In this document: positions 3,390 to 63,774 of the stretch, piece after piece
How positions within the stretch are numbered: position 1 is the first letter of the stretch
How the letters are laid out: every line of letters begins with the position of its first letter
DNA from: Escherichia phage vB_EcoM_TH18
Sequence record: ON075799
DNA length: 64,000 nucleotides
Strand: one strand, 5' to 3'
Translations under genes and position numbers: made by a program
Notes under the pieces: generated by a model
Told to the model about the DNA's origin: nothing
Database searches by the model: none
Seen by the model: only the letters and a program-made list of their open reading frames with translations

Positions 3390-3425
3390 CCCCAGAGTTA
3401 ATGAAAGTTTTCTTAGAGGCCAGCT

Positions 3426-4292
3426 ATGATGAAGAATCTGACGGATTATGAAGGGTGTTTTTATTTTGATGACTATCTGCGCTCCACGAGATCTAATAAA
3501 ATAGATTTTGATTATGGTGGGGTATTCCGTGAAGCCCTTATAAGGGAAGTTGAAAGTCACCAACATGAACCAAACCCTTTAATGGAAATCGTAAAACATG
3601 CTCTACTTATGTGTTTTGATACCCGAGATAGGGAATGTTACTGGAAATATTATGTTGAAGCTGACGAGCGTGCTCACATGGCAAGTGTAAACTTAAAGCA
3701 TGAGTTTCCAAGATATGATGTTACTTGTGGGCAAATAACAATCTCTTTCCGAGGCTTTAATTATGGCATGTGTTTAGCAGGATCATTGTCTGCACGAACA
3801 CAAAAATTCCTGTCTGTTTTGTCCCGATTGGGGCATTGGGATGGTAATATGTTTTCCATAAAGGCTTCCTATGTTAGAACAAGCTCGGATATTCTCCGCA
3901 TCAGGGAGATTAACTCCAGTTGCGGATCCTTTTTTCTGGCAGGTTGTTATGGAATGCTTTACCAAAGCAAGATGTATGATTATGCAGGTCATGCTGCAAT
4001 TAAGATAACCAACACGCCAAGCGTAGAGAATAAGAAATCGCACTACTACTTGGTGTGTAATACCCAAGAAGTAATGTATCATCGTGTTGTAGAAAAAGAA
4101 CTAAAAGAGCTTATCTTGGGAGAGATCCCTACCCAGGAGGAACGCTTAATGATAGAGATGGCTGGGTACAAAGGAGAATTTTTTCTTGATTCTCTTGTAG
4201 ATTTTGATAATATCGGTATAAAACCCTTTAATATGAAAGAGGCATATGAATGGTACAATCGAAGTCTGTCCCCAGTAACATTCAAGATTTAA
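3426..4292 (+). CDS. hypothetical protein
   Basis: 288-aa ORF, RBS AGAGG upstream. Confidence 0.55.
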   Translation: MMKNLTDYEGCFYFDDYLRSTRSNKIDFDYGGVFREALIREVESHQHEPNPLMEIVKHALLMCFDTRDRECYWKYYVEADERAHMASVNLKHEFPRYDVTCGQITISFRGFNYGMCLAGSLSARTQKFLSVLSRLGHWDGNMFSIKASYVRTSSDILRIREINSSCGSFFLAGCYGMLYQSKMYDYAGHAAIKITNTPSVENKKSHYYLVCNTQEVMYHRVVEKELKELILGEIPTQEERLMIEMAGYKGEFFLDSLVDFDNIGIKPFNMKEAYEWYNRSLSPVTFKI

Positions 4293-18230: not shown

Positions 18231-21158
18231 ATGAAGATTACAAAATGGGGGGCTGGTGCATACTTTGAAGGTGAGAACCCAAAAGCATTCCGTCCTGAAC
18301 GAAAAAGTGGTGGTAAAGTGAATTATCAGAAAAAAGAAGAAGAAACCGTAGAGTCTGTCCTAGATAGCACAAGGATCCTGGCTGTCCCCCAAATGGATAT
18401 TAGTTTAGATGCAGCTAAGTACTTTAAGATCAGATCTGCAACAGATTTGAAAGACGGCACTACAGTAGTGGCAACATATCTTCCATATTATGACAAATAT
18501 GGGAAATTGACAGGGTACAAGAAACGAGACTGGTCTGTCCCAAAAGAAAAAAAAGGTCATTTCTCTGTTGTTGGCACAGTGAAGGCCTCCTCTCAATTTT
18601 TTGGGCAACATGAAGCCGCTATGGGATCTGGTAAAAAACAGATCTTTATTGTTGAGGGGGAGGGTGATGTAACGGCTGGCTGGCAAGCTGGGTTTGAGTA
18701 TATTAAATTTCTTCATAGTAATCCTAATACGTCACGTTCAGTACGTGAGTGGGCAAGTAATGCTTTAAAAGGCATCAAAGCCATTCAGGATGGCGAAGAG
18801 GTTTCTAATTGCCCGACATTACCTTTTATCGGGTTGAACTGTGGAACAGCCAATGCGGTGGATACATTTGCCCACAACGAAAAGTTTATCAGGGAATATG
18901 AAAAGATTGTCCTTGGTTTAGACAATGATGAAGCCACAGCAAGGGAAAAAGAACACAGAATTAAGAAAGGTAAGGAAGCCACAGATGATGTTGCTAGTTT
19001 TTTGTTGTCTGACAACATCTATGTTGCACGATACCCGAATGAACGCAATGACCCAAATGGTGTTAAAGATATCCGGGATATTTACAAAAAAGGTAAGTGG
19101 ATGGATATCTGGAACATGTTTGCTAAAGCGCAGGATAAATATGTTCCTGACAAATTGATTGGGTTGGAGAGAATATCTATTGAAAATCTCCGTAAAAAGA
19201 AAAAAGATGGCGTTCCGTTGCCTTGCTTTCCTCGTTTGTATGAACTAACAAGAGGCCCACGAACAGGAGAATTGTGGACACTGACAGGCCCATCTGGAGC
19301 TGGGAAATCAACTTTCTCAAGAAAGATTGAATACGCAATTATCGAGTACCTCCGTAACATGGATATTCCCCGACTAGACGGATGGAAAGAGAACGAGAAG
19401 ATTGCAATTATCCGTCTAGAGGAGGATGAAGAGGAGTCTGTAAACAGTCTATATGCTGAGGAGTTAAAAATTGACCCGAAAGCATTTGTTGCAGACCCAG
19501 AGCAATTTCTTACCGATGAGCAGCACTTAGCGATACACCAACGGTGGATTGCCGAAGATAAGGTTAAAATTTTTGACCACTTTGGTTCAATACCGACTGA
19601 CCAATTGCTACAAAAATTGAAACAGATGGTTTTCCTTGATGGGTGCAGATGGATTATCTTAGATCACTTGTCGATGGTAATATCAGGATTAAAATCTGAT
19701 AACGAGCGAAGAGATTTAGATAACATCATGACGGAATTGGCTGCCTTCTGCAAAAAATATGACGTGTTTATCCTCAGTATCAGCCATATGAAGCGTAAAG
19801 AGATACAGATTCCAAAAGATAAGGATGGTAATCTCTTACCATTTTGGTATCCTGTGCGGAAAGAGGATCTTCGTGGTTGTCTTAACGGTTATGTAGAGTT
19901 CCTTACACCAGAAGGTTGGGTGCAGTTAAAAGACTACACACCGGGACAAAAAGTGGCACAGTGGGCAGACGGGGAGATATCTTTTACTGACGATGTTGAG
20001 CACATTAGACTTGAATGTCGAGAGGATATGTATGCATTCCGCAATTCAAGTTTTGAGATGACTGTCTCTGGAGAGCATCGTGTTCTACTGGATGTGGGGG
20101 GTGAGAAACAAGTTCTCACTGCGGAAGAGATTGCTAAACTGGCAAAATACGCTAGTTTTAAAGAACGATCTTCTATTGTCAGACATTACAGTGCTGGCAA
20201 TTTCCAGACATCATTAACAGAATGGCAAATCCGCGCCATGGTGATGTTTGCCGCTGATGGATGCTATCACAGCAATGGTTTGTGTAAGATGGAATTAAGA
20301 AAAGAGAGGAAAATAGAAAGAGCAACTAAAATTCTTGACAAACTTGGCGTGCATTATTCTCACGCAGTAAATAAAAGAGGGAACACAACCTTCAGGACTA
20401 AGGCATTGACAGAGAAAAAACCTCTACATCTATGCCATAATTGGTTTATTGAACCAAGCCATACCCTCAAAATTCTACTGGATGAGGTGTTCTTGTGGGA
20501 CGGTAGCGATAAAGGTGATAAGGGAAGAGAGTTTACTTCTAAGTATCGAGAAGAGTGTGATGTTGTTCAACACGCTGCTCATGCGAATGGAATGAGCACA
20601 AAACTCTACTCACGAACAGTAAATGGTGTTACATACTACACATTAAGTGTGTATCGGGAAGGTTCTTGTAAAAATAAGACATCTTTACGATCTCTTAAAC
20701 TGGAGAGAGAGCCTTCATGGGATGGATATAAATACTGCTTCAAAGTACCATCCAGCTATTTTGTTGTTCGACAAAACGGTGTGGTGTTCGTCACAGGAAA
20801 TAGTGCAGCACTCGAGCAGTTATCATGGGTTGTATTAGGTGTTGAACCTGAAGAACTCCCTGATCGCTCTCGTGGGCGTATTCGTAGCGTTGTAATGAAA
20901 AACCGTCCACATAAAAAATTAGGTATAGCGGATACTCTGATTATGGATGATAATGGTCAGTTTTCTGATGCATCTGGTTGGGTGTGGGAAGATGGTATGT
21001 TTAAACTTAATGGGGAGGTAATGCTAAGACCTAAATCAATGATTCAAAGTCTGGAACTTGAAACACCTGTGGGGAAAATTGCTGTTTCTGTTCCTCAACA
21101 AGAACCTGCTGTTGTTATTGAGCAACCTGAAGATTTAGATAGCGATTCTCCATTTTGA
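18231..21158 (+). CDS. primase-helicase (T7 gp4-like; Toprim + DnaB-family helicase) containing an intein
   Basis: 'EGEGD'/'DND' Toprim-like, Walker A 'GPSGAGKST', Walker B 'IILDH', helicase motif H4 'DLRG/SAALEQ' interrupted by a 308-aa insert. Confidence 0.7.
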   Translation: MKITKWGAGAYFEGENPKAFRPERKSGGKVNYQKKEEETVESVLDSTRILAVPQMDISLDAAKYFKIRSATDLKDGTTVVATYLPYYDKYGKLTGYKKRDWSVPKEKKGHFSVVGTVKASSQFFGQHEAAMGSGKKQIFIVEGEGDVTAGWQAGFEYIKFLHSNPNTSRSVREWASNALKGIKAIQDGEEVSNCPTLPFIGLNCGTANAVDTFAHNEKFIREYEKIVLGLDNDEATAREKEHRIKKGKEATDDVASFLLSDNIYVARYPNERNDPNGVKDIRDIYKKGKWMDIWNMFAKAQDKYVPDKLIGLERISIENLRKKKKDGVPLPCFPRLYELTRGPRTGELWTLTGPSGAGKSTFSRKIEYAIIEYLRNMDIPRLDGWKENEKIAIIRLEEDEEESVNSLYAEELKIDPKAFVADPEQFLTDEQHLAIHQRWIAEDKVKIFDHFGSIPTDQLLQKLKQMVFLDGCRWIILDHLSMVISGLKSDNERRDLDNIMTELAAFCKKYDVFILSISHMKRKEIQIPKDKDGNLLPFWYPVRKEDLRGCLNGYVEFLTPEGWVQLKDYTPGQKVAQWADGEISFTDDVEHIRLECREDMYAFRNSSFEMTVSGEHRVLLDVGGEKQVLTAEEIAKLAKYASFKERSSIVRHYSAGNFQTSLTEWQIRAMVMFAADGCYHSNGLCKMELRKERKIERATKILDKLGVHYSHAVNKRGNTTFRTKALTEKKPLHLCHNWFIEPSHTLKILLDEVFLWDGSDKGDKGREFTSKYREECDVVQHAAHANGMSTKLYSRTVNGVTYYTLSVYREGSCKNKTSLRSLKLEREPSWDGYKYCFKVPSSYFVVRQNGVVFVTGNSAALEQLSWVVLGVEPEELPDRSRGRIRSVVMKNRPHKKLGIADTLIMDDNGQFSDASGWVWEDGMFKLNGEVMLRPKSMIQSLELETPVGKIAVSVPQQEPAVVIEQPEDLDSDSPF
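19878..20801 (+). mobile_element. intein (308 aa) in helicase motif H4
   Basis: begins Cys 'CLNGYVEFLTPEGW', ends '...VVFVTGN' followed by Ser; flanks rejoin to 'DLRG-SAALEQ' (cf. DnaB 'DLRESGSIEQ'). Confidence 0.6.
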
Positions 21159-21256: not shown

Positions 21257-21353
21257 AGAAACATATGTCAAAAATAGGCAGTTTTCCACATAATCTATAA
21301 CCAACTAAGAGATGGGCGACGATACAGTCAAGCCCATCTTGAATAGGAGGAGT

Positions 21354-23390
21354 ATGAAAGGACTTTTTTTAGCCGATACAGAGGCTGATGGATTATTAGA
21401 AGAGGCAACTAAATATCACTGCACACTTTTTAAAGAATATGCTGTAAATAACTGGGTGTTGTTTCTCGATCCTGCTCACAAGGAATATCAGAGTGCAGTT
21501 AATTTTGCACGCAGCAAGGAAGGTGTTAATTTACGAATCCTTTCTTATGATGATTTTTACTCTTGGTTACAGACCGAACCAAGAGGGATAGCAATACATA
21601 ACCTGTTCGGCTATGACTTACGCCTGTGGAAAAAACTTTCTGGGATTGAATATGATATGTTCAAAGACCCAAAATGCATGGGGACGATAGGTAATAAACA
21701 GGTAAATCTTTACGACACTCTTTCAATGAGTCGTGTTCTTTACCCAGACCGCCCATTGCCTAATGGCTGCCCAGACTCTGTATTGAACCCTGTAACAGGA
21801 AAACGTGACAGGGTTGGGCCACACGGCTTATTGGCATGGGGTTATCGTGTAGCAAACAAGAAAGTGCAGATTGATGATTGGCGTAATCAGCCATTGTGGG
21901 AATATGTAAACCGTGTATGGGAAGACGTTATCATTAACGAACTTGTGTGGAAAGCTCTTATTGATGAGTCAAATGGTACGCGATGGCCTGATGACAAGCA
22001 GTTTATGTATACTGATAAACCTCACGGGATGCACCAGATTAATTGGAAAAATGCATTACGTAGGAGAATGCTCACAGACTATTTGATGATAGAGCAAGAA
22101 ATACAGGGTGTATACTTTAATCGGGAGGAGGCAGAAAAATTAAGAGATCGCATAGATAAGATGATGCGAGAAATTGAAGAAGAGGTAGAACCACTTCTTC
22201 CAAAAAAAGAGATGACGAAATCCCAACAACCAAAATTCCCAGCTAACCCTTTTGACACAGCGGGCAATATATCTCATCATGGGTGGAATTGGTTGGAATA
22301 TAAACTTGGCTATCCTGTTAACAGAGAAGCTCTGGAGTTCAAGGCTCCACCAAAAACAGCCTTTAAGAGTAACGGGGATGTAAGTGCAGCAGGGGAGAGA
22401 TATTGCATCCAGAATGGCATTGAAGATCCGGCTTTATACGGTGATTTCATTCGTTCCCAGCGAACCAAAGAGAACACACTCGAACCTTTACCGCCAGATC
22501 TTCTAGAGAAGGCTAAAGAAGACCTTCGAAATAGAAAAATGCCAGATTTAATGGTTCCAATGAAAATCTCTAATCAAGATGATATTAAAAAATATTTGAT
22601 CAAAGATGCTGGTTGGAAACCTACACTGTGGCGTGTAAAAGATGTTACTAAGGATCAATTTAAAAAGGCCCGTGAAGATTCTGAAATCGATGTACTAGTT
22701 AAGAAGTACATAGAAGAGTTGGCAGAATCTGAATATAAATCTCTTATTCTTGAATACCTTAATGATTCAGATGAGAAATTCAACATTTCAGAACGTAAGT
22801 TTGACCATCGCCATGCATCTGAAAGGGGTTATTCAGAGATATTTAAGAAATTTCGGCGCAAGGCACGCCAGTTACCGACATCTCCTCAACTAAAAGATAA
22901 TTTTGGGCATCTGTGCCCAAATCTGGAGAAAATTGATGTGCATATGGCAAAACAGATTGTTAAGTGGCTATCACTTCGTAACAGGCGATCTGTTTTAGAC
23001 CCAATGGATGAGGATAAGACGGATACAGGGTTATTAAATCACCCTCGTTTAGACATTGACGGAAAACTCCCAGCACGTTTTTCTGGAATCACTAACACGG
23101 GCAGGTGCAAGCATACTGTTTGCGCAAACATGCCCAAGCCTGATCCGAAGGTCTTGTTGGGAAAAGAAATGCGGGGTCTTTGGACAGTCCCTGAAGGCTA
23201 CTACCTGATGGGTTGTGATGGATCTAACTTAGAAGGTATGATTGCCGCAGCAGGAGCTTTTGAGTTTGATGGCGGTGAATATTTACGTATCATGATGGAA
23301 GAGGATGCCCATGAACGAAATGCAAGAGCATACACAATAGCCGCAGGAAAGGAGGTAACACGCTCTGGAGGAAAGGGGATTACGTATGGT
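21354..23390 (+). CDS. DNA polymerase (family A, T7 gp5-like) exon 1: 3'-5' exonuclease + polymerase motifs A and first half of B
   Basis: N-term 'MKGLFLADTEADGLLEEATKYHC' like T7 gp5 'DIEANALLESVTKFHC'; motif A 'CDGSNLE'; ends '...RSGGKGITYG' then stops in all frames; ATG 21354 with AGGAGG (ORF-track start 21312 less likely). Confidence 0.7.
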
Positions 23391-24124
23391 TAATGATAGC
23401 CCCCTTACAAAGTAATTTGTAAGGCGCACCCATTGAATTGCTGGGAAGTCTGACCGAGTTATGTCGAAGATAATCAGCAGGTAAGCGAATGCTTCCCTCT
23501 TACAAAAGGAGGGAGAATATGAGTACATTTTGTTGTATAATCTGCGGTGAGCAATGTGTTAAAACTGGTAAAAATCAAAAAGTATGTCTCTCTGAAGGCT
23601 GTAAAAGAGAATATCCAAAGATAAAAACCAGAGAATATAGACGCAGAAAGGCCGAAAAAGAAAATAGGCTTGATAGAGTTGGCATAGGAAAAGGTGGTGG
23701 GCAACCTTGTGGAAAATTGTCCAAATTTTATAAAAATGGTATATCGATGTTTCGTAAGTTATCCCCTGTCATAAAGGAACAGAGAAGATACTGTAATAGA
23801 TGTAATAAAGATCTTCTTTATGCAGGTAAGGATGAATGGTGCGTTCATCATATTGACCATGACAGGACGAATAACGAAATAAGTAATTTTGAATTACTTT
23901 GTAAAAAATGCCATCAAATAGAACATAAATGTTGGGAAGCATTCGAAACTTCAACGACTAGCCGAAAGGCGTAGGGCCAAGCGGTGAGGGAAACCTCCAG
24001 TCTTTTAGACTGCCGAAGCGGTGGGCATCCTGAAAAGGATGAAGATATAGTCTGATCTGCATAGAAATATGTAGCAGTTCCTAAGAGGACGGGCATGGTG
24101 TAGCGAGCCATGTTGAACAATATG
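23391..24124 (+). mobile_element. group I intron 1 (with HNH ORF)
   Basis: splits motif B ('...ITYG | IMYGAQAPKIA'); upstream exon ends in T, insert ends in G; shares 'AATTGC-GGGAA' and 'GATATAGTCTGA' elements with intron 2. Confidence 0.55.
23519..23974 (+). CDS. HNH homing endonuclease (intron-encoded)
   Basis: 'CVHHIDHDRTNNEISNFELLCKKCHQIEH' HNH motif with zinc-binding Cys pairs; RBS AAGGAGGG. Confidence 0.65.
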   Translation: MSTFCCIICGEQCVKTGKNQKVCLSEGCKREYPKIKTREYRRRKAEKENRLDRVGIGKGGGQPCGKLSKFYKNGISMFRKLSPVIKEQRRYCNRCNKDLLYAGKDEWCVHHIDHDRTNNEISNFELLCKKCHQIEHKCWEAFETSTTSRKA

Positions 24125-24457
24125 ATCATGTATGGAGCACAGGCTCCTAAGATAGCCGCAATGCTGGGTATCCCCCTTAATAGAGCACAGGCTGTAATAG
24201 ATGCATTCTGGGATAGTAACTTCGGGTTGAAAATGCGTAGGGAGCGGTTGGAAAAATTCTGGGAGGCAAATGGGAGACGCTATATTCCAGGCATGGACGG
24301 GCGTAAAATTTGGACTCGTTCTAAACATTCTCTGCTGAATGCTTACCAACAAAACGGTGGCGCTTCATTGTTTGACCTCATGGGAGTCCTGTTCCATTGG
24401 GAATTGGTAAAACGGGGATGGTACGACCAAGGTGTCAGGAGGGTTATCTATTACCAT
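24125..24457 (+). CDS. DNA polymerase exon 2 (rest of motif B to start of motif C)
   Basis: 'IMYGAQAPKIAAMLGI...RVIYYH' ; ends exactly before 'DE' of motif C. Confidence 0.6.
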
Positions 24458-24774
24458 AAACAATATTGTGGCTTCATGCAGTAATGCATGTCGAAAACCT
24501 CTCTAATTGACGGGAAAGCTAAGTTGATTCTTATAATTTATTGTGTTATAAGGACAATATGCCAATCCGCAGCGAAGCATCCCTACGGGATGAACGTTCA
24601 ACGACTATCGAAAGCACACTAGTAATGTGTAAGTGAGTAGAGTAGGCCAGCAAGTGCGGTCCAAACGGGAGGAACCCTTGAAAAAGGGTTATGATATAGT
24701 CTGACCCACAGGAGAAATCTTGTGGCTATGCACGTAACGGTGCGGGGGAGAGTAGCGAACTCCTTGAACTGGTG
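24458..24774 (+). mobile_element. group I intron 2 (ORF-less)
   Basis: splits motif C 'YYH | DEIQV'; ends in G; conserved elements shared with intron 1. Confidence 0.5.
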
Positions 24775-26728: not shown

Positions 26729-27034
26729 ATGAAAAAATTTACAAAAGAGCAGCTACTTAAGCATGTTCGCTCTAATGTTGACCATCTGGAAGACCTCCAA
26801 CAGCGTGTTGGTGAGGCTGGAGATGAGTATAAGAAGATTTTTGATATGGTATCTCTTGATTTGGAGATTGCTAAGATCGCATTAAATGCATTAGAAGCAA
26901 AACCGATTGGTGCTTTCCATATCACAAAGCAGCAAGTCGATGGTACAAGCGACTATATCAAAGATGGAGAATGGCCCATTGATAACGGAACAATTGAAGT
27001 ATACACTTCACCACTTGCTTTTACAGCGTGTTAA
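26729..27034 (+). CDS. hypothetical protein (paralog family 'IAL.ALEAKP')
   Basis: shares 'LEIAKIALNALEAKPIG' motif with 27405..27938. Confidence 0.5.
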   Translation: MKKFTKEQLLKHVRSNVDHLEDLQQRVGEAGDEYKKIFDMVSLDLEIAKIALNALEAKPIGAFHITKQQVDGTSDYIKDGEWPIDNGTIEVYTSPLAFTAC

Positions 27035-27052
27035 TAACAAAAGGGAGCGAGG

Positions 27053-27178
27053 ATGTTCAATAATTTGCCCAGTACTGGTTTTTTCTTGTTTCTTGGGGTT
27101 GTTTGTGCAGTTATTGGTTGGGCAGCTATTGAGTCAATTCTTTGGCTGCTTTCTTTCATACACATAACTATTTATTAA
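27053..27178 (+). CDS. small hydrophobic ORF (41 aa), not in ORF track
   Basis: strong RBS GGGAGCGAGG before ATG 27053; predicted membrane peptide 'MFNNLPSTGFFLFLGVVCAVIGWAAIESILWLLSF...'. Confidence 0.35.
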   Translation: MFNNLPSTGFFLFLGVVCAVIGWAAIESILWLLSFIHITIY

Positions 27179-27186
27179 GGATTGGT

Positions 27187-27402
27187 ATGTTAATAACAAA
27201 GGATAAATACATGAACGGACAAATCTCAATTACTCGACCTAACACAGGTGATGATGACAAGATAAGAATGGCTATTCGTCTGGAGAGAGGAAAAACAATA
27301 ACTGCTCTTGTTACCCCAGAAAATCTTGCATTGGCACTGACCGGAAAGTCAGAACTCCCCGTAGAGCTAGATGTGAGAAATGTTGAGATTAAGGTGAAAT
27401 AG
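27187..27402 (+). CDS. hypothetical protein
   Basis: ATG 27187 after AAGGA; ORF-track TTG start at 27142 less likely. Confidence 0.45.
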   Translation: MLITKDKYMNGQISITRPNTGDDDKIRMAIRLERGKTITALVTPENLALALTGKSELPVELDVRNVEIKVK

Positions 27403-27404
27403 GT

Positions 27405-27938
27405 ATGAGCATTCTTACTAAAGAGAGATTGTTGACAATCAAGCAGTGGCGCGAAACATACGGACTTGGTAGTAACGTTGTACTGCCAGCAGAAGAGGCG
27501 CAAGAACTGGCACGAATTGCTCTGGCATCGCTGGAAGCGAAACCTGTTGCATGGACTGATGAGGAACTGCGTGATGTTAAGCAGTATGGTTTCGGTGAGA
27601 TATTTCAGTGTCCGCCAGATAAATATGCGGACCCGCGTCGTGTAATCTCGCTGTATCGCGAGCCGCCAACACTTACAGTGCCGAAAGTGGAACCGATAGT
27701 AGTAAACGACGACATGGCATACGCATTCCATCATGCACTGTCAGATTCATCGCTAGGCGCTGATGAGGTAGAGGAAATTAAAACTGGGTTGCGTGCAGCC
27801 TTTGCCAACGTCACCACCCAGCCACCATTGATAGTGCCTGATGAAATCGAGCCAGACGATAGCAATACGTTTGATTATGTTGATGGCTGGAACGCCTGTC
27901 GCGCTGCCATGCTCAAAAAGAAGGGGATGAATCAATGA
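27405..27938 (+). CDS. hypothetical protein, GC-richer host-like codon usage (paralog family 'IAL.ALEAKP')
   Basis: 'ARIALASLEAKPVAW' motif; frequent CTG/GCG/CGC codons unlike flanking genes. Confidence 0.5.
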   Translation: MSILTKERLLTIKQWRETYGLGSNVVLPAEEAQELARIALASLEAKPVAWTDEELRDVKQYGFGEIFQCPPDKYADPRRVISLYREPPTLTVPKVEPIVVNDDMAYAFHHALSDSSLGADEVEEIKTGLRAAFANVTTQPPLIVPDEIEPDDSNTFDYVDGWNACRAAMLKKKGMNQ

Positions 27939-28018
27939 CCTGGCCTGAAGCATTCACAACGGTAGGGGTTGTAATGGCTGTAGCATTCGCAGTGTACTCA
28001 GTTTGCCGATGGGGGTGA
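27935..28018 (+). CDS. tiny hydrophobic ORF (27 aa), not in ORF track
   Basis: ATGA overlap with upstream stop; 'MTWPEAFTTVGVVMAVAFAVYSVCRWG'; stop 2 nt before next ATG. Confidence 0.3.
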   Translation: MTWPEAFTTVGVVMAVAFAVYSVCRWG

Positions 28019-28020
28019 TA

Positions 28021-28218
28021 ATGATAAAAGAACAGCCAGAAAATGATACTCAAAAATCACGTTTTCAGCAGTGGTTGGAACAACAACATGATCAGATTGA
28101 TGTGGATTGTGGTTGTGTTTCTATTGAAACATTCATGTATTGGTTACAAGTGGCGTATGAGGCAGGAGGAGATTTAAATGAACAATGGTTATCAACCTGT
28201 CATCTCGGAAATGGCTAA
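28021..28218 (+). CDS. hypothetical protein
   Basis: ATG 28021 with RBS GGGGGTGA. Confidence 0.45.
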   Translation: MIKEQPENDTQKSRFQQWLEQQHDQIDVDCGCVSIETFMYWLQVAYEAGGDLNEQWLSTCHLGNG

Positions 28219-28584
28219 TGTTTCTCTTCCACCTTCGTCACCAAGCCTTAAAGCAGCAACCCAACAACCAGTTGCTTGGCGGTATCGCTACGTGAAAAAA
28301 AAAGCGTTACGGACTCTCAGGGGGAGCCGTGGGTTGGTGACTGGAAATATGTACCGACAAAAGAAGATTGTAACGACAGACCAAACTACGAAATTCAGGC
28401 GTTATACACCACACCTGTAACCTTAGAAGGACTGGTTAAAGCAGTGCGCTTTTATGAACAGGTAAAGCGCGAGAATCCACCAGTCGAAACAGGAGCATGG
28501 AAAGACGCTGTTGACTGGGTGCTCAAAGAGGCATATAATGCAGTCAATAAAACAACACAGGACTTATCAAATTATGAAAATTGA
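28178..28584 (+). CDS. hypothetical protein requiring a -1 frameshift or slippage at an A9 tract (28295-28303), or frameshifted pseudogene
   Basis: Upstream frame 'MNNGYQ...PVAWRYRYVKKK' (RBS GGAGGA) continues sensibly only in the -1 frame 'SVTDSQGEPWVGDWKY...'; downstream ORF's own start is TTG without RBS. Confidence 0.45.
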
Positions 28585-28801
28585 CTACCAAGAATTACGT
28601 AAGTTAGCAGAGATAGCAAGAGATGGTGGTACTTATCAAGAAATAGCGGACTACCGTAGTATGGTAACACCGGAGGTTGTATTGTCACTTCTTGATGAAC
28701 TTAAGAAGTTAGAAGACACAAATATTGACGCTATGTGTCAAATTGCAGAACTTAAAATTAATATCAAGTTGTTGAAGGGAGAGGTGGTTAGCCATGACTG
28801 A
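28574..28801 (+). CDS. hypothetical protein (paralog of 29842..30075)
   Basis: 'MKIDYQELRKLAE...PEVVLSLLDEL' vs 'MTIDYQALREAAE...PETVLELLDEL'. Confidence 0.45.
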   Translation: MKIDYQELRKLAEIARDGGTYQEIADYRSMVTPEVVLSLLDELKKLEDTNIDAMCQIAELKINIKLLKGEVVSHD

Positions 28802-29213
28802 GAAATCAACGCATATTGATGAAATCAATCGTCTTGGCGCTAAATGTGCAACTCTTTTAGAAGAGAAATACCATGATAAAAAGAAAATCTCCGAACTTGC
28901 GACTCGTTGTGCAGAGCTATTAGCTGAAAATATAGTGCTGCACAGGGCAATTAAAGCTGTCCACAATGTTGCTGATGACTCCAGTGGGGTTGCCGATTGG
29001 CATTTGAATGGCGATATTTCTGCATGGGAAGAGGTTCTTCCTGAAATTTATGATATCAAGACCTGGGCCACCGATGCTTTCCTGGCTGAAGTGAGGGCGC
29101 AGGGTGTGGAGATGTTCTCAGAAAAATTCGGAGGTGGCACTCCGCTATCCAATATGGTCAAAGAGGTTGCGGCTGATTTTGCGGCGAAGCTTCGCAAAGG
29201 AGGCAACCAGTGA
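28794..29213 (+). CDS. hypothetical protein
   Basis: 139-aa ORF. Confidence 0.5.
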   Translation: MTEKSTHIDEINRLGAKCATLLEEKYHDKKKISELATRCAELLAENIVLHRAIKAVHNVADDSSGVADWHLNGDISAWEEVLPEIYDIKTWATDAFLAEVRAQGVEMFSEKFGGGTPLSNMVKEVAADFAAKLRKGGNQ

Positions 29214-29854
29214 ATAACCGCTTTTACATGATGTGCTTGCGTGAAACTGTGGGTAATAACGCCTCATTCCATTGCCATAACGGCAATGGTTACAGTTCTG
29301 ATATCGATCGCGCTCATGTTTACACGCTGGAAGAAGCCCAAAAAGCCTGGAATTGTGGACGAGATATCGATCAGCCTGTTTGCGCTGATAGCGTGGATGC
29401 AATGGCTGTGTGGCACGTTGATTGCCAGTACATCCCCACAGAAAGCCTGATTGAGTCAGATTGCACTGCGTATGTGGCCTACAAAAAAGGTAGCTGGAAC
29501 GGCAACGATGTTTACTGGCTTCAACACGGTGGATTGCCAACAGATGACTTCAGTAAAGCGACCATCTTTAGCGTCGCCAACAAAAACGAACCAGGAATAG
29601 TTTGGTTGCCATTTTCCATTGCTGATGCAGCAAAGCGTCGGACGTTCAATATCAATAACTTTAACCGCAGAACAATGGTTCAGGGCGCAGGTTTGGTCAT
29701 GCCTGACTGGTTGAAAGAGCAGAACAGAAGAAAGAAGTCGCGAAGCGGGAAGGTGCGTTGGAATTGTCCGCATTGCGGAAAAATAACCTGGCAGTACAGC
29801 CCATATGATTTTGAAGGCTGTAGTGATTACAACTGTGAAGGATGGCGAGAATGA
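29210..29854 (+). CDS. hypothetical protein with C-terminal Cys-rich zinc-ribbon-like segment; host-like codon usage
   Basis: 'WNCPHCGKITWQYSPYDFEGCSDYNCEGW'; GC-richer codons. Confidence 0.5.
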   Translation: MNNRFYMMCLRETVGNNASFHCHNGNGYSSDIDRAHVYTLEEAQKAWNCGRDIDQPVCADSVDAMAVWHVDCQYIPTESLIESDCTAYVAYKKGSWNGNDVYWLQHGGLPTDDFSKATIFSVANKNEPGIVWLPFSIADAAKRRTFNINNFNRRTMVQGAGLVMPDWLKEQNRRKKSRSGKVRWNCPHCGKITWQYSPYDFEGCSDYNCEGWRE

Positions 29855-30075
29855 CAATTGACTATCAGGCACTGCGTGAGGCGGCGGAACGTGCAATTCC
29901 AGCAATGGAACGCCTGTTAATGCTGCCAGTTGATGATGATTTGTTAAGTGAACAGGAACTTAAAGATTACGGTGTGGATATTGATGCGCTCAACGCCTTC
30001 AAATTTCTGGCCGGACCAGAAACCGTGCTGGAACTGCTGGATGAACTGGAAATTAAAGATGGAGATTGGACATGA
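29842..30075 (+). CDS. hypothetical protein (paralog of 28574..28801), host-like codon usage
   Basis: shared N- and C-terminal motifs; GC-rich codons. Confidence 0.45.
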   Translation: MARMTIDYQALREAAERAIPAMERLLMLPVDDDLLSEQELKDYGVDIDALNAFKFLAGPETVLELLDELEIKDGDWT

Positions 30076-30347
30076 CAAACAAGAAGTTAACAGGCGAACA
30101 ACTTGTTGAGAATCTTAAAGAGAAACTTTGCAACAACCCCTCTTTGGAAGAGAAGTTGTTACTTAAATATTTCGAAGATAATGTGGATATGCTCCCTGTA
30201 GAGTATGCTTGCCCAGAGGGTTTCCACAAAGCATTTCGACAAGTGGATGTATGTAAGAAAGGCTATCAAGATATGGTTATTTGGAGTATTCTTTCAGGAG
30301 GGGATTCTGGAAGGATTTGGGAAGTTATAGAAGAGTTTTTCTCCTGA
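30072..30347 (+). CDS. hypothetical protein
   Basis: ATG 30072 (ATGA overlap) after GGAG. Confidence 0.45.
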   Translation: MTNKKLTGEQLVENLKEKLCNNPSLEEKLLLKYFEDNVDMLPVEYACPEGFHKAFRQVDVCKKGYQDMVIWSILSGGDSGRIWEVIEEFFS

Positions 30348-30354
30348 AGTTGTC

Positions 30355-30540
30355 ATGAAATTTTTATCTGCATTAAGTATTCTCTTCATAGCATTAAAGT
30401 TGTGTGAGATTATAGACTGGTCTTGGTGGTTAGTTCTTGCCCCTCTATACCTACCATGGGCAATTGTTGTTGTTCCTCCTTTAATTATAGCAGTTACAGC
30501 TTTTGTGCTATCTTTTCTTCCAGAAAAAGATAAAAAATAA
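30355..30540 (+). CDS. small membrane protein (two predicted TM helices)
   Basis: 61 aa, 'LSILFIALKL' and 'LVLAPLYLPWAIVVVPPLIIAVTAFVL' hydrophobic segments. Confidence 0.45.
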   Translation: MKFLSALSILFIALKLCEIIDWSWWLVLAPLYLPWAIVVVPPLIIAVTAFVLSFLPEKDKK

Positions 30541-30542
30541 TC

Positions 30543-30571
30543 TTGACATAAAGAACCTCATGGTGTAATAT
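30543..30571 (+). promoter_or_regulatory. strong sigma70-type promoter
   Basis: TTGACA-N17-TAATAT, 31 bp upstream of ATG 30603. Confidence 0.6.
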
Positions 30572-30602
30572 GTAATACTCAGCAACCTTGTAAGGAATAG
30601 AT

Positions 30603-30944
30603 ATGTCTAAAGAAAAACAAACACCTGAAAACAAAGAAGATATCCGTTTTCTTGATCTTGATGAAGGGCAATTTGGAACAATTGTATACTTGTCCAGCGC
30701 TAGCCACCAGATGGGAACAGTAATAGGGTCGAAAGAAATTCGAGAAGAGATGCTAAAGCTCATCCAAAGTGGTAACTATAAAACTGTAGAGGATGCAATT
30801 TCATGGATCCGAGGACACCGTGACAATTTGTTGAAATTAAACACTGCTTCCGCTTTTGCATTGAACCTGCTAAATCAAGTTGAAGATTTAGTGGTAGATA
30901 AGATGTTGAGCGTCGGAAACGAAACTGCTGAAGGCGTTAAGTAA
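30603..30944 (+). CDS. hypothetical protein
   Basis: 113-aa ORF behind strong promoter, RBS AAGGA. Confidence 0.55.
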   Translation: MSKEKQTPENKEDIRFLDLDEGQFGTIVYLSSASHQMGTVIGSKEIREEMLKLIQSGNYKTVEDAISWIRGHRDNLLKLNTASAFALNLLNQVEDLVVDKMLSVGNETAEGVK

Positions 30945-30958
30945 TAAAAGGAGAGAGA

Positions 30959-32131
30959 ATGAGCGTAATCAATGAATTTAAGAATCCAATCAACGGAAAA
31001 GTTGATTATTTTGCAAAAGGTTTTATCAAGTATGTTAATATTCGTCCAGTGAAAAACGCTGACGCAGACGGTATCCGACGTACCCATATCCCTGCTCGCA
31101 ACGGGCAACCAGCTAAAGTTATTGAGGCTACGCACTCAATCAGTTTCCTGATGCAAGAAGTTGACGACAATAACAACGTTATTGACCAACAAAGTCAAGG
31201 TGAATGGATTTCCATGGGTGAGAAAAAACTTCACCCAAACCATGCAGACAAAATTCAGGTAAAATTTGATTCTGGATACAAAGATATTGTGGCGGGGATG
31301 GTTGTTTCTTTCCCTCTCAAAATTACTAAAAGTGGGGATAAAACGTATACAAACGGCACTTTAAACGGAAAGACTTTCAGCATTCTCGATGAAAGTAAAG
31401 TTGGTCAAAGTGCTCCTCGCCAGCAATCTTCTACTCAATCTCCTGCAAATGCCCAAATTAAAGGCACTAAAATTTATGGTGAGATTGCTGCAATCGTTGG
31501 CAATGTGGTGACAGTTAATGATGAGAAGAATGGTCAAGGAAACCTTGTCCTAACAGATGAGCAATTGGCGCAAGTTACGGTAGGTGGTCGTGTCACTGCG
31601 ATTGTTAACCTAAGTGATGGTACGGTCTTAAGTGGGTTTAAAGCCTACGGTCCTGCTGGGCAGACTAAGAAGTCATCTGGCGGCTATGATGCTTTAGGTG
31701 TTGCTTGTGGGCACGGCATCAACGGTGTGAAGGAACTCATTAAAGCTGGTTTTAAGATTGAGGATCGTCTCTCTGCTGCGAAAATGGTTCACAACGCTAC
31801 AGTAGCTATGAAGGCTTTTGTGGCAGAGAGAACAGGAAAAGATGCGGAATCTAATGCGGTAGGTGCTAGTGCTGGTAATGCTATCTTAGTAGCTTGTGCT
31901 TTGTATCATCAAGCCGATAAACTAACAGAAGATGGTATTCTGAATGCCGCTAAAGATGTTTACTTAACGCTGTCAGAGCCGTTTTACGAGTTCTTATCTA
32001 AAGGCGATGGAAAGACACAACAAGAGAACAAACAGGATGCTAAGGAACCTTTGAACAGTTCTAACAGCGATATTCCGAATATGGAATCGCCAGCACCTGA
32101 GTTTGACTTCGATGACAGCATTCCTTTCTAA
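30959..32131 (+). CDS. single-stranded DNA-binding protein (SSB-like)
   Basis: acidic C-terminal tail '...EFDFDDSIPF' like E. coli SSB 'DFDDDIPF'; Gly/Gln-rich linker. Confidence 0.55.
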   Translation: MSVINEFKNPINGKVDYFAKGFIKYVNIRPVKNADADGIRRTHIPARNGQPAKVIEATHSISFLMQEVDDNNNVIDQQSQGEWISMGEKKLHPNHADKIQVKFDSGYKDIVAGMVVSFPLKITKSGDKTYTNGTLNGKTFSILDESKVGQSAPRQQSSTQSPANAQIKGTKIYGEIAAIVGNVVTVNDEKNGQGNLVLTDEQLAQVTVGGRVTAIVNLSDGTVLSGFKAYGPAGQTKKSSGGYDALGVACGHGINGVKELIKAGFKIEDRLSAAKMVHNATVAMKAFVAERTGKDAESNAVGASAGNAILVACALYHQADKLTEDGILNAAKDVYLTLSEPFYEFLSKGDGKTQQENKQDAKEPLNSSNSDIPNMESPAPEFDFDDSIPF

Positions 32132-32156
32132 AAGTAACATTTGTTAATATAAAAAA

Positions 32157-32182
32157 GGGAGCTTTTAGCTCCCTTTTCTTTT
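32157..32182. terminator. bidirectional intrinsic terminator at convergence of early and late blocks
   Basis: GGGAGCT-TTT-AGCTCCC flanked by A6 and TTTTCTTTT. Confidence 0.6.
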
Positions 32183-32186
32183 GCTA

Positions 32187-34130
32187 TCACGCCACATTAA
32201 TATTAAATTTCGCCAACGGCGATGTAATGTCACCTTTACTGGTTGTTTGAACATATGCAACACCAAATAAAACCGTACCCGCAGCATATCCGTATTGTTT
32301 TACTTGATCTGCGTGGGTAAATGTGTAACTATTAGTGGTCAATGTTTGTTGAGATATAACATCCCCTGTCAGGACATCAAAGTTAACAAGGGAGAACTTG
32401 TTATAATCTCTGGTATCCCATGACAAAAGAATGTCTTGGTTAGCTTGTCTTACTGCCTTTCCTCCACTAGGAACTTTCATATCCACCCAAGCAGGAGGTG
32501 TGCTCGACAAGTCTTCCATGTTAGCCAAGGATATCGCAGCATTCTTATAAATTGTTGGTCGGTACTGTATTCTTAAACCATTACCTGCCCCAGAAACAAC
32601 ATAATTGCCATAGTCTTCAGCACCATCAACCCAAGAGCCAATTATAACGTCGCCATTGGAATCTGCCACCAACTGTTGTTGAATATTTCTATAACGATAC
32701 CACTCAACACCACCTACCTCAACACTACCATCAAAGCATCTACCAAGAGTCTGCAATACAATCTTGGCTTCTGGGTTTGCAATAGCAGAACGGATATTAT
32801 CAAAGATTGCGGTCATAGCAGACTGAAAACGAGCATCATCGCTATGTTTCCCTTCTTCTTTTGCTGCTGCCACCATAGCATCTTGCTCTCCTAACGACCA
32901 GAAAACAGCCTTAATTTTATCCTTATAAGGTTTAACCTTCGCAAGGAATTGTGTTAGACATGGACCTGCTGTGGAGGAACTAACGTCATACCAGTAATTT
33001 GTGGCTGGCCCTGTAGAGGAGTTTGCCTGTGCTTCTGCACAAGATGCAATGAATGTGGCATTTATTGGTAATACCTCTGCTGGGTAAAACCCTTTGTGAA
33101 GAGCATACTCATTACGTGCTACGGTTGCACTTTGGCTTGTTTTGTCCCTACCGGAAAAAGAATTAAAATGCGCTGCTGCGTTATCGCCGCCAGCAAAAAC
33201 AAGCACCTCTTTAACAAAAGAGTCGTCAACAGTAACATTATTATTAAAAGCTATAGGTATTGTTTCTGGATTTGATCCTTTGATGTGCACAATAAGATAT
33301 GTAGGGGCAAATCCAAAGATAGGGACTGACTCTGTAACATCAAAGAATACAAATGTGTCTTTGGTTTTCTTACTCCACACAACCTCCATCCCCTCAGAGT
33401 CATAAACCTCTACGGTATAAATATCATCCGAGGAGGGAAATTGAACATCCCACGCTATCTTAATGTCACCATAGCTGTTGGCTACAGCAGTAGGATTTGT
33501 AAGTGCTGGAGCTATATCTACATATACATCGGTAAGTGTCGTTACTATCACATCTCTATAGGTTCCTTTCATACCACAATGCCCGACACCTCTACCAGCA
33601 CATGTAATGATACCACTAGGAGCCAGACTTAATACATCAGGTGTTTCAGAAACTGCGGTGACATAAAAATCATCATCCTCCATAACTTCTGCTGGAGAGA
33701 TGTTAAAGCCAATCATATTCCTATTCGGATTGCCTGGGTCAAAAGACGGGTCGCCTTTATAGACAAACCAGAATCTATCTCCAACACTTCTACTGCCTAT
33801 AGGATCAACATCAATGCGTAATGTGTCAACATGACCATTGATTTGTGCTGTCAAGGTCTTTTCTTCATCTCCTTTACCCGTCTTTGCAGACATTGTAATG
33901 ATAAAATCACCATCTTCAAGAAAAGATACTAACCCTGTAGGGTCAACAGATACAATCGTCGGTTTGTCTGGTGTAAACGTTATATCATGCAAGTCTGCAC
34001 CTTCCGGCACAACAGACCATATTAATTGTGCTTTGCCTCCTTTAAGACACGTACCGAGGGAGGTTAAGGAAACGGAGTTGGCTAGAGGGTTATTGGAAAT
34101 AATGATATAAAAACAAGGAATTGGATACAT
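32187..34130 (-). CDS. tail fiber/tailspike protein, possibly with carbohydrate esterase-like domain
   Basis: 648 aa from ATG 34130 (RBS AGGAGG); position in fiber cluster; esterase call is weak. Confidence 0.45.
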   Translation of the reverse strand: MYPIPCFYIIISNNPLANSVSLTSLGTCLKGGKAQLIWSVVPEGADLHDITFTPDKPTIVSVDPTGLVSFLEDGDFIITMSAKTGKGDEEKTLTAQINGHVDTLRIDVDPIGSRSVGDRFWFVYKGDPSFDPGNPNRNMIGFNISPAEVMEDDDFYVTAVSETPDVLSLAPSGIITCAGRGVGHCGMKGTYRDVIVTTLTDVYVDIAPALTNPTAVANSYGDIKIAWDVQFPSSDDIYTVEVYDSEGMEVVWSKKTKDTFVFFDVTESVPIFGFAPTYLIVHIKGSNPETIPIAFNNNVTVDDSFVKEVLVFAGGDNAAAHFNSFSGRDKTSQSATVARNEYALHKGFYPAEVLPINATFIASCAEAQANSSTGPATNYWYDVSSSTAGPCLTQFLAKVKPYKDKIKAVFWSLGEQDAMVAAAKEEGKHSDDARFQSAMTAIFDNIRSAIANPEAKIVLQTLGRCFDGSVEVGGVEWYRYRNIQQQLVADSNGDVIIGSWVDGAEDYGNYVVSGAGNGLRIQYRPTIYKNAAISLANMEDLSSTPPAWVDMKVPSGGKAVRQANQDILLSWDTRDYNKFSLVNFDVLTGDVISQQTLTTNSYTFTHADQVKQYGYAAGTVLFGVAYVQTTSKGDITSPLAKFNINVA

Positions 34131-34146
34131 TACTCCTCCTAAAACA

Positions 34147-34166
34147 AAGGCCACAACTGTGGCCTT
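34147..34166 (-). terminator. intrinsic terminator/attenuator between fiber genes
   Basis: AAGGCCAC-AACT-GTGGCCTT then TTTGTTTT on minus strand. Confidence 0.45.
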
Positions 34167-34171
34167 TTATA

Positions 34172-35926
34172 TTATGGTTGTGGTCTGCGGACAATAACAG
34201 TGTCAACAACCCCATCTTCAACACCATTAAATGTCAATTGAAGGATGGTAACTGAATTTGCTGCTGTATTAACAGTTTCACTGTTAAGGACAACATAATT
34301 AGGATCCAGAGTTATACTGTGTCCACCTGTGGCATCCTGCGTCAGATAAATCATAGCGGAGAAAGGTTGTTGTGGGTCAGGCCATGCTCCGATTGTCAGA
34401 TTCTTATTCACTGTGACATTATAAATGTTGGATGTGCCACTTGGTGTCCATGTTGCCGTTGGGTCGCCAACTTCTTCCGATTGTAAAGTTAGGAAACCCA
34501 CATTGGTGGAAGAAAGTTGTGTCTGACCGTTAACAAATAACTGATTTGTCGTTACACTATTTTGGGAAGAGAGAGATGCTACGTTAACATTCTGACCTGT
34601 TAAATCAATCGTAATACCGGATACAGTTCCCTTGACAATCAAATTGTTTACTGTCGTTGTGCCAGAAGATCTATTTAAGACTACATCACCATCAGAGACA
34701 ATTTTACCAAGGTTAGAAGTTCCGTTAACCGTCAGATCACCGTCTACAGATCCGTCGCCAGTCGCAGTGAATCCCTCCCCCAAAGTTAATAGCCCTGTGA
34801 CATTACCAGTTGTAGAGGAGAAATCTTTGAGGCTGGCTTGCCCATTAACAACAAGGTTGTTAGTAACTTCTAAGCTCTCACATGTTGTACTGTTGAGATT
34901 GGTATTACCATTGACTTGTAAATCACCACCTACAGTAACCCCTTGTGCCGTTGTTACAGAATTAGGCGAGATATCTTCCCCATTGACAGAAAAAGAAAGT
35001 CCTGTTACAGTACCTGTAATCTTTAAGTTTTCAAGCTCTGTCATCCCAGAAACTTTAAGACGAGCTTCAGAGGGGTCTTTTTTAGAGTTGCCTGTAATAT
35101 AAACATAGTCGAAGGTATTATTACCAAGACCTGTGAAAGACATTGTTGTATTGTCTGCTACTGGCACACCGTTTATAATGATGTCTGTATGTAGCTGATG
35201 TGTCTGCGCTGAGTATGCTTCAAGCCTTGTTTTTATAAACGTCGGGTTAGAATCATCACTGTAGGCAAAAGATAAACTTGAATTATCTTTTGTTAAGATA
35301 AGATTCTGGAATTTTCCTGTTTGATTGTCAGCGTTAACAGGCCCATTAAATGTTGATACACCGCCAACAGAAAGCGTATTAAGACTCGCTAAACCTGTTA
35401 CAGTAAGATCCGCGAATGTACCATTTCCACCCGCAATCCCAGCTAAAGCAGTAGCAATAGCTCTAGTAACGAATTGTGTTGTTGCTAGTGTTGTGCTGTT
35501 ACTATCTGCTGATGGTGTTGGTGCTTGAGGGTTCCCTGTAAAGATAGGACTGTCAATAGGCGCAAATAGTTGCGACATAGATTCTGAATCGTTGTATAAT
35601 CTCCAGTTAACATTGTTGATCGGGTTAGAAGGCAACACCACCGGAGAGCTTTCAGTTGCACCGGGGGCATACCACCATTGGACACCTCTTTCCCCTGTAT
35701 AAGCATACAACTGATTAAATACTGTTGCCTGTTGCCCAGCAACCCACGGCAGTGGAGGTGTTTTAAAGAATAAATTGTCAAAAAATGCTTTTCTGACTGT
35801 AGGTATCAGACTACCATCCTCTGTAACTACAGTTTCAGTTGCTGTTCCATTGACAATTTTATGAAGGCGTTCAGAATCTTCTACAACCTGATCTACCGCC
35901 TGTTCAAATTTAGTCATGTCCGCCAC
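34172..35926 (-). CDS. tail fiber protein
   Basis: 'SPIFTGNPQAPTPSADSNSTTLATTQFV' conserved fiber N-region motif; Gly/Thr/Asn/Ser-rich repeats. Confidence 0.65.
   Translation of the reverse strand: MADMTKFEQAVDQVVEDSERLHKIVNGTATETVVTEDGSLIPTVRKAFFDNLFFKTPPLPWVAGQQATVFNQLYAYTGERGVQWWYAPGATESSPVVLPSNPINNVNWRLYNDSESMSQLFAPIDSPIFTGNPQAPTPSADSNSTTLATTQFVTRAIATALAGIAGGNGTFADLTVTGLASLNTLSVGGVSTFNGPVNADNQTGKFQNLILTKDNSSLSFAYSDDSNPTFIKTRLEAYSAQTHQLHTDIIINGVPVADNTTMSFTGLGNNTFDYVYITGNSKKDPSEARLKVSGMTELENLKITGTVTGLSFSVNGEDISPNSVTTAQGVTVGGDLQVNGNTNLNSTTCESLEVTNNLVVNGQASLKDFSSTTGNVTGLLTLGEGFTATGDGSVDGDLTVNGTSNLGKIVSDGDVVLNRSSGTTTVNNLIVKGTVSGITIDLTGQNVNVASLSSQNSVTTNQLFVNGQTQLSSTNVGFLTLQSEEVGDPTATWTPSGTSNIYNVTVNKNLTIGAWPDPQQPFSAMIYLTQDATGGHSITLDPNYVVLNSETVNTAANSVTILQLTFNGVEDGVVDTVIVRRPQP
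35514..35554. repeat. 41-bp exact DNA repeat (copy 1) shared with 58173..58213
   Basis: GGTGTTGGTGCTTGAGGGTTCCCTGTAAAGATAGGACTGTC, encodes 'DSPIFTGNPQAPTP' on minus strand. Confidence 0.8.
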
Positions 35927-63759: not shown

Positions 63760-63774
63760 GAATTATCCCCTCTG

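Follow-up and report, generated by a model that had tools for sequence, protein, structure and literature searches.

Where do the rV5-like coliphages encode a protein that binds single-stranded DNA (ssDNA)? The question is raised by positions 30543–32131 of a 64,000-nucleotide stretch of Escherichia phage vB_EcoM_TH18 (sequence record ON075799; the whole stretch is hereafter called the window), where a promoter of sigma-70 type is followed on the same strand by a gene for a protein of 113 amino acids (aa) and by another for a protein of 390 aa that ends in DFDDSIPF. One would expect a phage of ~120 kb that encodes a helicase and a polymerase to make its own ssDNA-binding protein (SSB) too, and the 390-aa protein is the only candidate that we found. 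On balance we think it rather probable that a conserved host-type promoter drives a two-gene unit whose large protein is the phage's own non-canonical SSB, predicted as such and furnished with a tip like that of the host SSB.

The region 30300–32400 is 100% identical to Escherichia phage 18-1-2 (OK136180.1; Avunavirus, Vequintavirinae) and 94.5% identical to Av-05, the type phage of Avunavirus. In the records of both phages every gene of the region is labelled 'hypothetical protein'. Phages of the rV5-like group (Vequintavirinae) are widely used as therapeutic and model coliphages.

An SSB-like protein with a host-like tip

The 390-aa reading frame ending in DFDDSIPF, which an earlier note on this DNA had singled out as an SSB, is present at 30959–32131. 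Its parts are as follows:

30959–32131, + strand: open reading frame (ORF) of the 390-aa SSB-like protein (phrog_4477), with Shine-Dalgarno sequence AAGGAG at 30948–30953, ending in EFDFDDSIPF and a stop codon
30959–31393, + strand: N-terminal beta-rich domain, aa 1–145, the candidate ssDNA-binding OB-like core (AlphaFold2)
31463–31654, + strand: central small beta-barrel, ~aa 169–232, with low-confidence Q/S/G-rich linkers on either side (AlphaFold2)
31688–32002, + strand: four-helix domain, ~aa 244–348, with the residues equivalent to the DRT10-escape positions discussed below (AlphaFold2)
32003–32128, + strand: disordered linker, aa 349–382, then the acidic tip at 32105–32128 (model confidence and alignment)
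32129–32131, + strand: stop codon of the SSB-like gene

The protein belongs to phrog_4477, which is annotated 'unknown function' (E 3.9e-155, residues 1–390), and it has no match in Pfam, NCBIfam or PADLOC. When the single sequence was compared with PDB sequences by phmmer, nothing was found for the folded part. A profile of 29 family members matched E. coli SSB in the PDB only over ...PPMDFDDDIPF, the last 32–35 residues, and the NCBIfam SSB models match two relatives solely via the tail. As to membership of the canonical SSB family (PF00436/TIGR00621), a sequence-detectable OB core was not found; a canonical feature that is present is the disordered linker ending in an acidic amphipathic tip with a C-terminal Phe.

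This tip is the most striking conserved element of the family alignment: D385, P389 and F390 occur in all 29 aligned members, and D383, F384 and I388 are at least 90% conserved. Fourteen of the 15 distant homologues inspected also end in an acidic ...[IVL]PF, the exception being an apparently truncated protein of 273 aa. The last residues here, EFDFDDSIPF, are almost identical to the MDFDDDIPF of E. coli SSB. The family comprises 67 clusters at 90% identity, of which the named ones are of Vequintavirinae type and many lie on contigs of ~130–150 kb. Searched against 1.84 billion representative proteins, a profile of the N-terminal domain retrieved just 40, a few of them long multi-stretch matches, and a Pfam scan of ten distant members gave no credible domain and no bridge to a named family.

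One homologue, that of phage SalP219, bears the UniRef name 'tail fiber protein', and the gene under study adjoins tail protein genes (32187–35926). We regard a structural or tail-associated role as highly improbable: the tail genes run on the other strand, beyond a terminator; the gene is part of a rightward replication block, and its product has the architecture and tail of an SSB; and no tail-protein fold stands out among the structural matches. We rejected the UniRef name as one assigned from the gene neighbourhood.

What does the folded part look like? The whole protein was modelled by AlphaFold2 with the family alignment, as a monomer like all our models, with a mean predicted local distance difference test score (pLDDT) of 77.6. 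In the model the beta-rich domain (aa 1–145) is followed by a Q/S-rich low-confidence linker, the barrel (~169–232), a short G/S/K-rich linker, four helices (245–262, 270–292, 299–314 and 324–347) and a tail whose residues 351–390 have pLDDT < 50 and are disordered. The suggestion that this is a long SSB with extra domains thus holds as a description of architecture, the model having three folded domains and a disordered tail.

A Foldseek search of the PDB with the whole model returned a list made up almost wholly of OB-fold nucleic-acid binders, with a best E of 0.018 (not significant). Short matches of 58–69 columns were to an OB domain of RPA (4gop_A; probability 1.00, root-mean-square deviation 2.8), to IF1 (probability 0.99) and to the OB domain of a proteasomal ATPase; weaker ones were to the SSBs of E. 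coli, Salinibacter and phage p2. The N-terminal domain modelled alone reached a pLDDT of 90.9 and a predicted template modelling (TM) score of 0.81. About half of its top 50 Foldseek matches in the PDB are ssDNA-binding OB proteins (RPA, Deinococcus SSB, the MCM N-terminal domain, p2 SSB, PriB, CST and Cdc13), and mitochondrial, Pseudomonas and Bacillus SSBs are also included; TM scores were at most 0.42 when normalised by the target. Because the short RPA and IF1 matches are missing from these top 50, they most likely belong to the central barrel. The four-helix domain may replace the OB-OB tetramer interface of canonical SSBs.

The layout of a folded core, a low-complexity disordered linker and a C-terminal tip is that of bacterial and phage SSBs. 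Unlike the SSB family, the protein has a core without detectable sequence homology, although its weak fold neighbours include several SSBs, and it has three folded domains in 390 aa whereas a canonical SSB has one OB domain of ~115 aa. The 'SSB' proteins of phAPEC8/ESCO9 type (Stephanstirmvirinae, 295–315 aa) share with it a homologous N-terminal domain, the helical domain and the tip, and their genes occupy the same place, after the polymerase and before convergent structural genes; however, they are too short for three folded domains and are without the conserved motifs of the central barrel.

Is there another SSB in this type of phage? Searches by tblastn with E. coli SSB, mEp235 SSB and T7 gp2.5 detected no second SSB in the window or in Av-05 outside ~50.0–59.8 kb, and no SSB is annotated in the same inspected parts of Av-05. 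For T7 gp2.5 the lack of a tblastn match is a weak test; gp2.5 was not among the fold matches either.

The closest characterised relative is Bas52_0087 (QXV84166.1) of phage Bas52 (MZ501102; RudolfGeigy), with which the 390-aa protein shares 38% identity from end to end (BLASTP, E 3e-83). The order bas52_0086/bas52_0087 matches the pair in the window, with a homologous small gene directly upstream. On this alignment and gene order the window protein is a full-length syntenic orthologue of Bas52_0087, that is, a further member of the family and not a new kind of protein. Bas52_0087 has been described from Phold and AlphaFold predictions as 'SSB-like', with two OB folds, a disordered C-terminus and an FDDDIPF tip (bioRxiv 10.64898/2026.04.29.721553), so that the SSB-like nature of the family is already in the literature, as a prediction of a 2026 preprint. 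For both proteins the predictions give beta domains followed by a helical domain and a disordered tail that ends in FDD[DS]IPF. They differ in length (390 aa here against 408 aa, with shorter linkers in the window protein), in the tip (DFDDSIPF against SFDDDIPF), in genus (Avunavirus against Vequintavirus) and in gene context, since in the window no further rightward gene comes between the SSB-like gene and the convergent tail genes, while Bas52 has more rightward genes after it.

The orthologue is needed to trigger the DRT10 defence. Two independent escape mutants of Bas52 were obtained on a host carrying the DRT10/UG17 reverse transcriptase, and both bear missense changes in Bas52_0087, D252V and Y351C, at residues placed at a predicted oligomerisation interface; the gene was linked genetically to the SbcB-controlled activation of DRT10, competition with SbcB or its displacement was suggested, and expression of Bas52_0087 alone left host viability unaffected (bioRxiv 10.64898/2026.04.29.721553). 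That both escapers are missense and not null mutants fits an essential gene. In our pairwise alignment both residues are conserved: D252 corresponds to D244, which is at least 90% conserved in the family alignment, and Y351 to Y343, at the start and the end of the helical domain respectively. DRT10 senses infection by way of Bas52_0087; the orthologue in the window, its conserved escape positions and the conserved promoter described below extend that story to another genus.

These genetic data also bear on a different role, in which the protein would be a decoy or hub: an oligomer would present many copies of the host SSB tip, sequester or redirect ExoI/SbcB, RecQ, RecJ, PriA and Ung and so protect phage DNA ends and intermediates, while the beta domains served another purpose. 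The link of the orthologue to SbcB-controlled DRT10 activation suits this proposal (bioRxiv 10.64898/2026.04.29.721553), as do the clustering of the escape mutations within the helical domain, outside the beta domains, the statistically weak OB-fold similarity, and the fact that the tail carries the only significant likeness to SSB. We nevertheless hold it unlikely. The two beta domains are the best conserved and most confidently modelled parts, and their nearest fold neighbours are ssDNA binders; our searches of the window and of Av-05 outside ~50.0–59.8 kb turned up no second SSB candidate, and a phage of ~120 kb is expected to have one; and the harmlessness of the orthologue to host viability when expressed alone would be unexpected of a strong sink for SSB partners (bioRxiv 10.64898/2026.04.29.721553).

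We therefore return to the reading of the 390-aa protein as an SSB. What counts for it are the architecture, the tail, the genomic position, the failure to detect another SSB and the orthology with Bas52_0087, and to this extent the identification given in the earlier note stands; the protein does, however, fall outside the canonical SSB family and its OB likeness is weak. Several points weigh against our interpretation of the locus: (i) no SSB-family sequence model (Pfam, NCBIfam, PDB profiles) matches the folded part, the matches being confined to the tail; (ii) the 'SSB' and 'ssDNA-binding' names of GenBank homologues probably derive from the tail and appear to rest on it alone; (iii) the modelled N-terminal domain resembles OB folds without reaching significance (best E 0.1; query-normalised TM at most 0.38); (iv) ssDNA binding is a model-based prediction for every member of the family; (v) the absence of another SSB from Av-05 leaves out ~10 kb (~50.0–59.8 kb); (vi) a plain 10/12 match to the promoter motif is no commoner than chance in the window; and (vii) the pair could owe most of its transcript to a source other than the promoter.

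How might such a unit work? The region would be the last transcription unit of the rightward replication/early block of an Avunavirus (rV5-like) phage, in which the sigma-70 promoter, read by host RNA polymerase, would boost two linked genes and transcription would stop at the hairpin at 32153–32185. The divergent OB-like N-terminal domain and the small IF1/RPA-like barrel would hold ssDNA, and the four-helix domain would mediate self-association. The flexible linker would present DFDDSIPF, a putative copy of the E. coli SSB tip, which could dock onto proteins that read the SSB tip: partners of the host SSB, exonuclease I for instance, or the polymerase of the phage. The family is a good candidate for the SSB of rV5-like phages, with a core unrecognisable by sequence and an extra helical domain.

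The acidic tail of the helicase and possible partners of the tip

Which proteins would the tip contact? When every ORF of the 64-kb window is considered, just two encode a C-terminus in which PF follows an acidic stretch. One is that of the SSB-like protein; the other is that of the primase-helicase, which reads ...EDLDSDSPF:

21132–21155, + strand, within ORF 18231–21158: acidic tail ...DLDSDSPF, directly before the stop codon, of the DnaB-family primase/helicase

In relatives the helicase tail reads DLDSDSPF (Av-05), FEDDETPF (Bas52_0075) and DDDTPF plus an extension (Mydovirus VIK251). We found no earlier description of an acidic -PF tail shared by the helicase and the SSB-like protein of these phages. 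A precedent exists in T7, where gp4 and gp2.5 both touch the phage polymerase through acidic tails that end in Phe (PMC8472574); the same precedent is credited to Ghosh et al. 2009 (PMC2781589) where PMC9917605 cites that work. As with T7 gp2.5 and gp4, the SSB-like protein and a hexameric SF4/DnaB-type helicase of one phage share an acidic tail with a C-terminal Phe, the resemblance being a functional one only; a difference is that the tail of the SSB-like protein reproduces the tip of host SSB instead of the T7 tail. By analogy, the tip might act within the phage replisome, in addition to or in place of contacts with the partners of host SSB.

A stricter version of this idea is that both acidic -PF tails bind basic patches on the phage polymerase, in which case the likeness to the host tip would be convergent or secondary; it concerns the partner of the tail and not the ssDNA role. 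We see it as possible without favouring it. It would account for the restriction of such tails to two ORFs of the window, for the conservation of the helicase tail in three genera and for the presence, on the Mydovirus helicase, of the same module of tip and extension as on the SSB-like proteins, and it has the T7 model behind it, in which helicase and SSB tails both contact the polymerase. Yet the tip of the SSB-like protein is almost letter for letter that of enterobacterial SSB (DFDD[DS]IPF) and is conserved in enterobacterial phages, a specificity far beyond that of acidic tails in general; the tails of the helicases (DLDSDSPF, FEDDETPF) follow the pattern more loosely; Pfam gave no match at E <= 0.001 for the ORFs of the split polymerase; and the genetic link of the orthologue to SbcB points to host partners.

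The shared tails of helicase and SSB-like protein suggest a replisome organised as in T7. At the same time, the near-exact host tip could plug the phage replisome into the interactome of host SSB, or compete with it.

The probable promoter and the two-gene unit

Is the gene pair provided with a promoter of its own? The elements that frame the unit are:

30355–30540, + strand: ORF of a 61-aa membrane protein, directly upstream of the promoter gap
30520–30542, + strand: A/T-rich stretch GAAAAAGATAAAAAATAATC, 5' of the -35 hexamer and overlapping the end of ORF 30355–30540 (sequence)
30543–30571, + strand: promoter of sigma-70 type, with -35 TTGACA at 30543–30548, N17, and -10 TAATAT at 30566–30571 (sequence and relatives)
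30603–30944, + strand: ORF of the 113-aa conserved protein (phrog_7310), first gene of the pair, with Shine-Dalgarno sequence AAGGA at 30592–30596
32153–32185, no strand assigned: hairpin terminator with an A-tract upstream and a T-tract downstream (11-bp stem, 5 G-C pairs)

The motif TTGACA-N17-TAATAT lies wholly inside the 62-nt gap between the stop of ORF 30355–30540 and the ATG at 30603, on the same strand as the gene pair, with 31 nt between the end of the -10 hexamer and the ATG. From its position, transcription is expected to start near 30578. The motif matches the consensus at 10 of 12 positions and has no TG of an extended -10. It had been rated the best host-type promoter of the window, which does not hold: ~38 sites score at least 10/12 and three score 11/12. 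The latter, at 63753–63781 (+), 28511–28539 (+) and 2057–2030 (-), are sigma-70-like as well, and the first of them also carries the TG of an extended -10. Promoter-like sites are not enriched in the 10-kb neighbourhood (26 against 21.1 +/- 4.5 in shuffles), and TTGACA-N17-TAAKAT with at most one mismatch was found twice against 1.6 expected by chance.

More informative is the comparison with relatives. TTGACA-N17-TAA[G/T]AT stands directly upstream of the orthologous small gene in Av-05, in a second Avunavirus contig (our L016), in SalP219 and 4MG (Seunavirus), in KpS11 (Mydovirus) and in K54_rec3, which matches KpS11 almost exactly in its upstream region. The Vequintavirus phages Bas52 and rV5 carry TTGTAA-N17-TAAAAT in the same place. 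Seven phages of four genera have in common the TTG, an A and a T of the -35 region, TAAnAT and a spacing of 17 nt, while the spacers themselves vary in much of their sequence, even when the window is set against Av-05. The rV5 record contains an annotated sigma-70 promoter, P220, of the same form (TTGACA-N17-TAAGAT). Thus the promoter at 30543–30571 is probably functional, because hexamers and spacing are conserved while the spacer drifts and because it is correctly placed, and not because of its motif score.

Does it drive the two genes on its own? The upstream genes are co-oriented, with no terminator just before the promoter; therefore it would supplement read-through and is probably not the sole driver. 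The earlier view of a promoter driving both genes is thus borne out as regards its intergenic position, strand and conservation across genera, and qualified as regards exclusivity. An A-rich stretch 5' of the -35 also occurs in the relatives, and the A/T-rich sequence at 30520–30542 could be an UP element.

The -10 of the orthologous promoter forms the centre of an inverted repeat, AAGGGGTA-ATA-TACCCCTT, in the phages of Seunavirus and Mydovirus (~2105–2123 of contig L004, with equivalents in L005, L006 and L008); in Vequintavirus the -10 lies inside the loop of a similar repeat, GAAGGGGA...TCTCCTTC (~7556–7584 of L003). Such a repeat at the -10 could be an operator or a 5' hairpin. No inverted repeat around the -10 is present in the window or in Av-05.

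Downstream of the promoter, the 113-aa and 390-aa genes are separated by 14 nt, each has a strong Shine-Dalgarno sequence, and the pair is syntenic across the Vequintavirinae. The 113-aa protein is homologous to bas52_0086 (28% identity, E 2e-11), and alignment places homologues at the same position in Seunavirus and Mydovirus phages. All but one of the Vequintavirinae genera inspected have the small gene conserved ahead of the SSB-like gene; the one excepted is Certrevirus (CR3), whose upstream gene encodes 61 aa and was left out of the comparison. The description of the 113-aa protein as unknown agrees with our searches, in which it matched nothing in Pfam, PDB, NCBIfam or PADLOC; phrog_7310 is itself annotated 'unknown function'. 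The small gene directly upstream of the Stephanstirmvirinae homologues was considered as a relative and rejected, being unrelated to the 113-aa protein by BLASTP and hhalign. From the tight linkage one might guess that the 113-aa protein works together with the SSB-like protein.

At the other end of the unit, the hairpin at 32153–32185 (RNA folding energy -16.5 kcal/mol, z = -3.3) separates the SSB-like gene from the convergent tail-protein genes at 32187–35926, and its flanking tracts suggest that it could terminate transcription in both directions. Most relatives inspected have a G+C-rich hairpin 3' of the stop codon of the SSB-like gene. An Rfam scan of 30000–32600 gave sub-threshold matches only, caused by this hairpin. 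The rightward block that the SSB-like gene closes also contains a PIF1-type helicase, the DnaB-family primase-helicase (18231–21158) and a split DNA polymerase.

The C-terminal extension, possible exchange at the tip and neighbouring genes

In the window the SSB-like protein stops right after its tip (stop at 32129). About 40% of the family continue instead with a 15-residue extension, ...DDDIPF-AP[IV]GLQYxxHxIxx and then a stop, so that the extended form of the tip reads ...DIPFAPIGLQYGRNFIHCI. In the contigs of relatives the extension is encoded at 3683–3730 (L004), 3671–3718 (L006), 3725–3772 (L007), ~3401–3448 (L011), 3001–3066 (L012) and 2001–2069 (L013). The same extension ends the canonical SSBs of unrelated phages, namely lambdoid mEp235 (DFDDDIPFAPVTLPFPRHAIHAI) and Proteus and Vibrio phages, and the same tip plus extension occurs on Mydovirus primase/helicases. 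A 22-aa query made of tip and extension retrieved 232 phage records at E <= 10, some of the weaker matches being partial. Partners of host SSB require the free C-terminal Phe, which the extension would bury. No relevant paper came up when the literature was searched for the extension motif.

Genes for homing endonucleases of HNH/EndoVII type occur repeatedly at, or overlapping, the end of the tip or extension: at 3744–4367 of L007 (rV5 gp208), at 3691–4116 of L005, and in our matches H68, H78, H83 and H112. The genes so placed adjoin SSB-like genes or, in the case of phage GAP31, the gene of the primase/helicase, which suggests that the conserved tip-coding DNA is a homing target. Could the extension be mere read-through into an inserted homing endonuclease gene? 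We rejected this as a full explanation, since the peptide is conserved where no endonuclease follows (SalP219, KpS11, mEp235) and since an endonuclease gene can follow a tip without extension (K54_rec3).

Between close Avunavirus contigs, homology ends exactly at the last codon of ...IPF and resumes near the 5' end of the tail-protein gene (32128–34098 of the window against 4170–4977 of L016). Given this break at the tip, the extension, the terminator and the adjacent tail gene, perhaps for a receptor-binding protein, would have been exchanged as one cassette, and the tip-coding sequence looks like a recombination junction. We put forward, tentatively and without much weight, a broader proposal in which the acidic -PF tip is a portable adapter on the phage SSB and primase-helicase, the extension acts as a switch between host and phage partners, and the tip DNA serves as a junction at which tail-fibre cassettes and HNH genes are exchanged.

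Two further observations concern the neighbourhood. The DNA polymerase of the window is encoded in two ORFs, 21312–23393 and 24110–24484, each carrying a polymerase annotation, with an HNH endonuclease ORF (23489–23974) between them; in Av-05 it is in four pieces with three HNH genes in between. The stretch 27000–30500 has a G+C content of 0.45–0.48 against ~0.38–0.42 in most flanking windows, contains small genes named EaA and Ea22 in the record and resembling those of lambdoid prophages, and is probably what had earlier been called a 'host-like island'.

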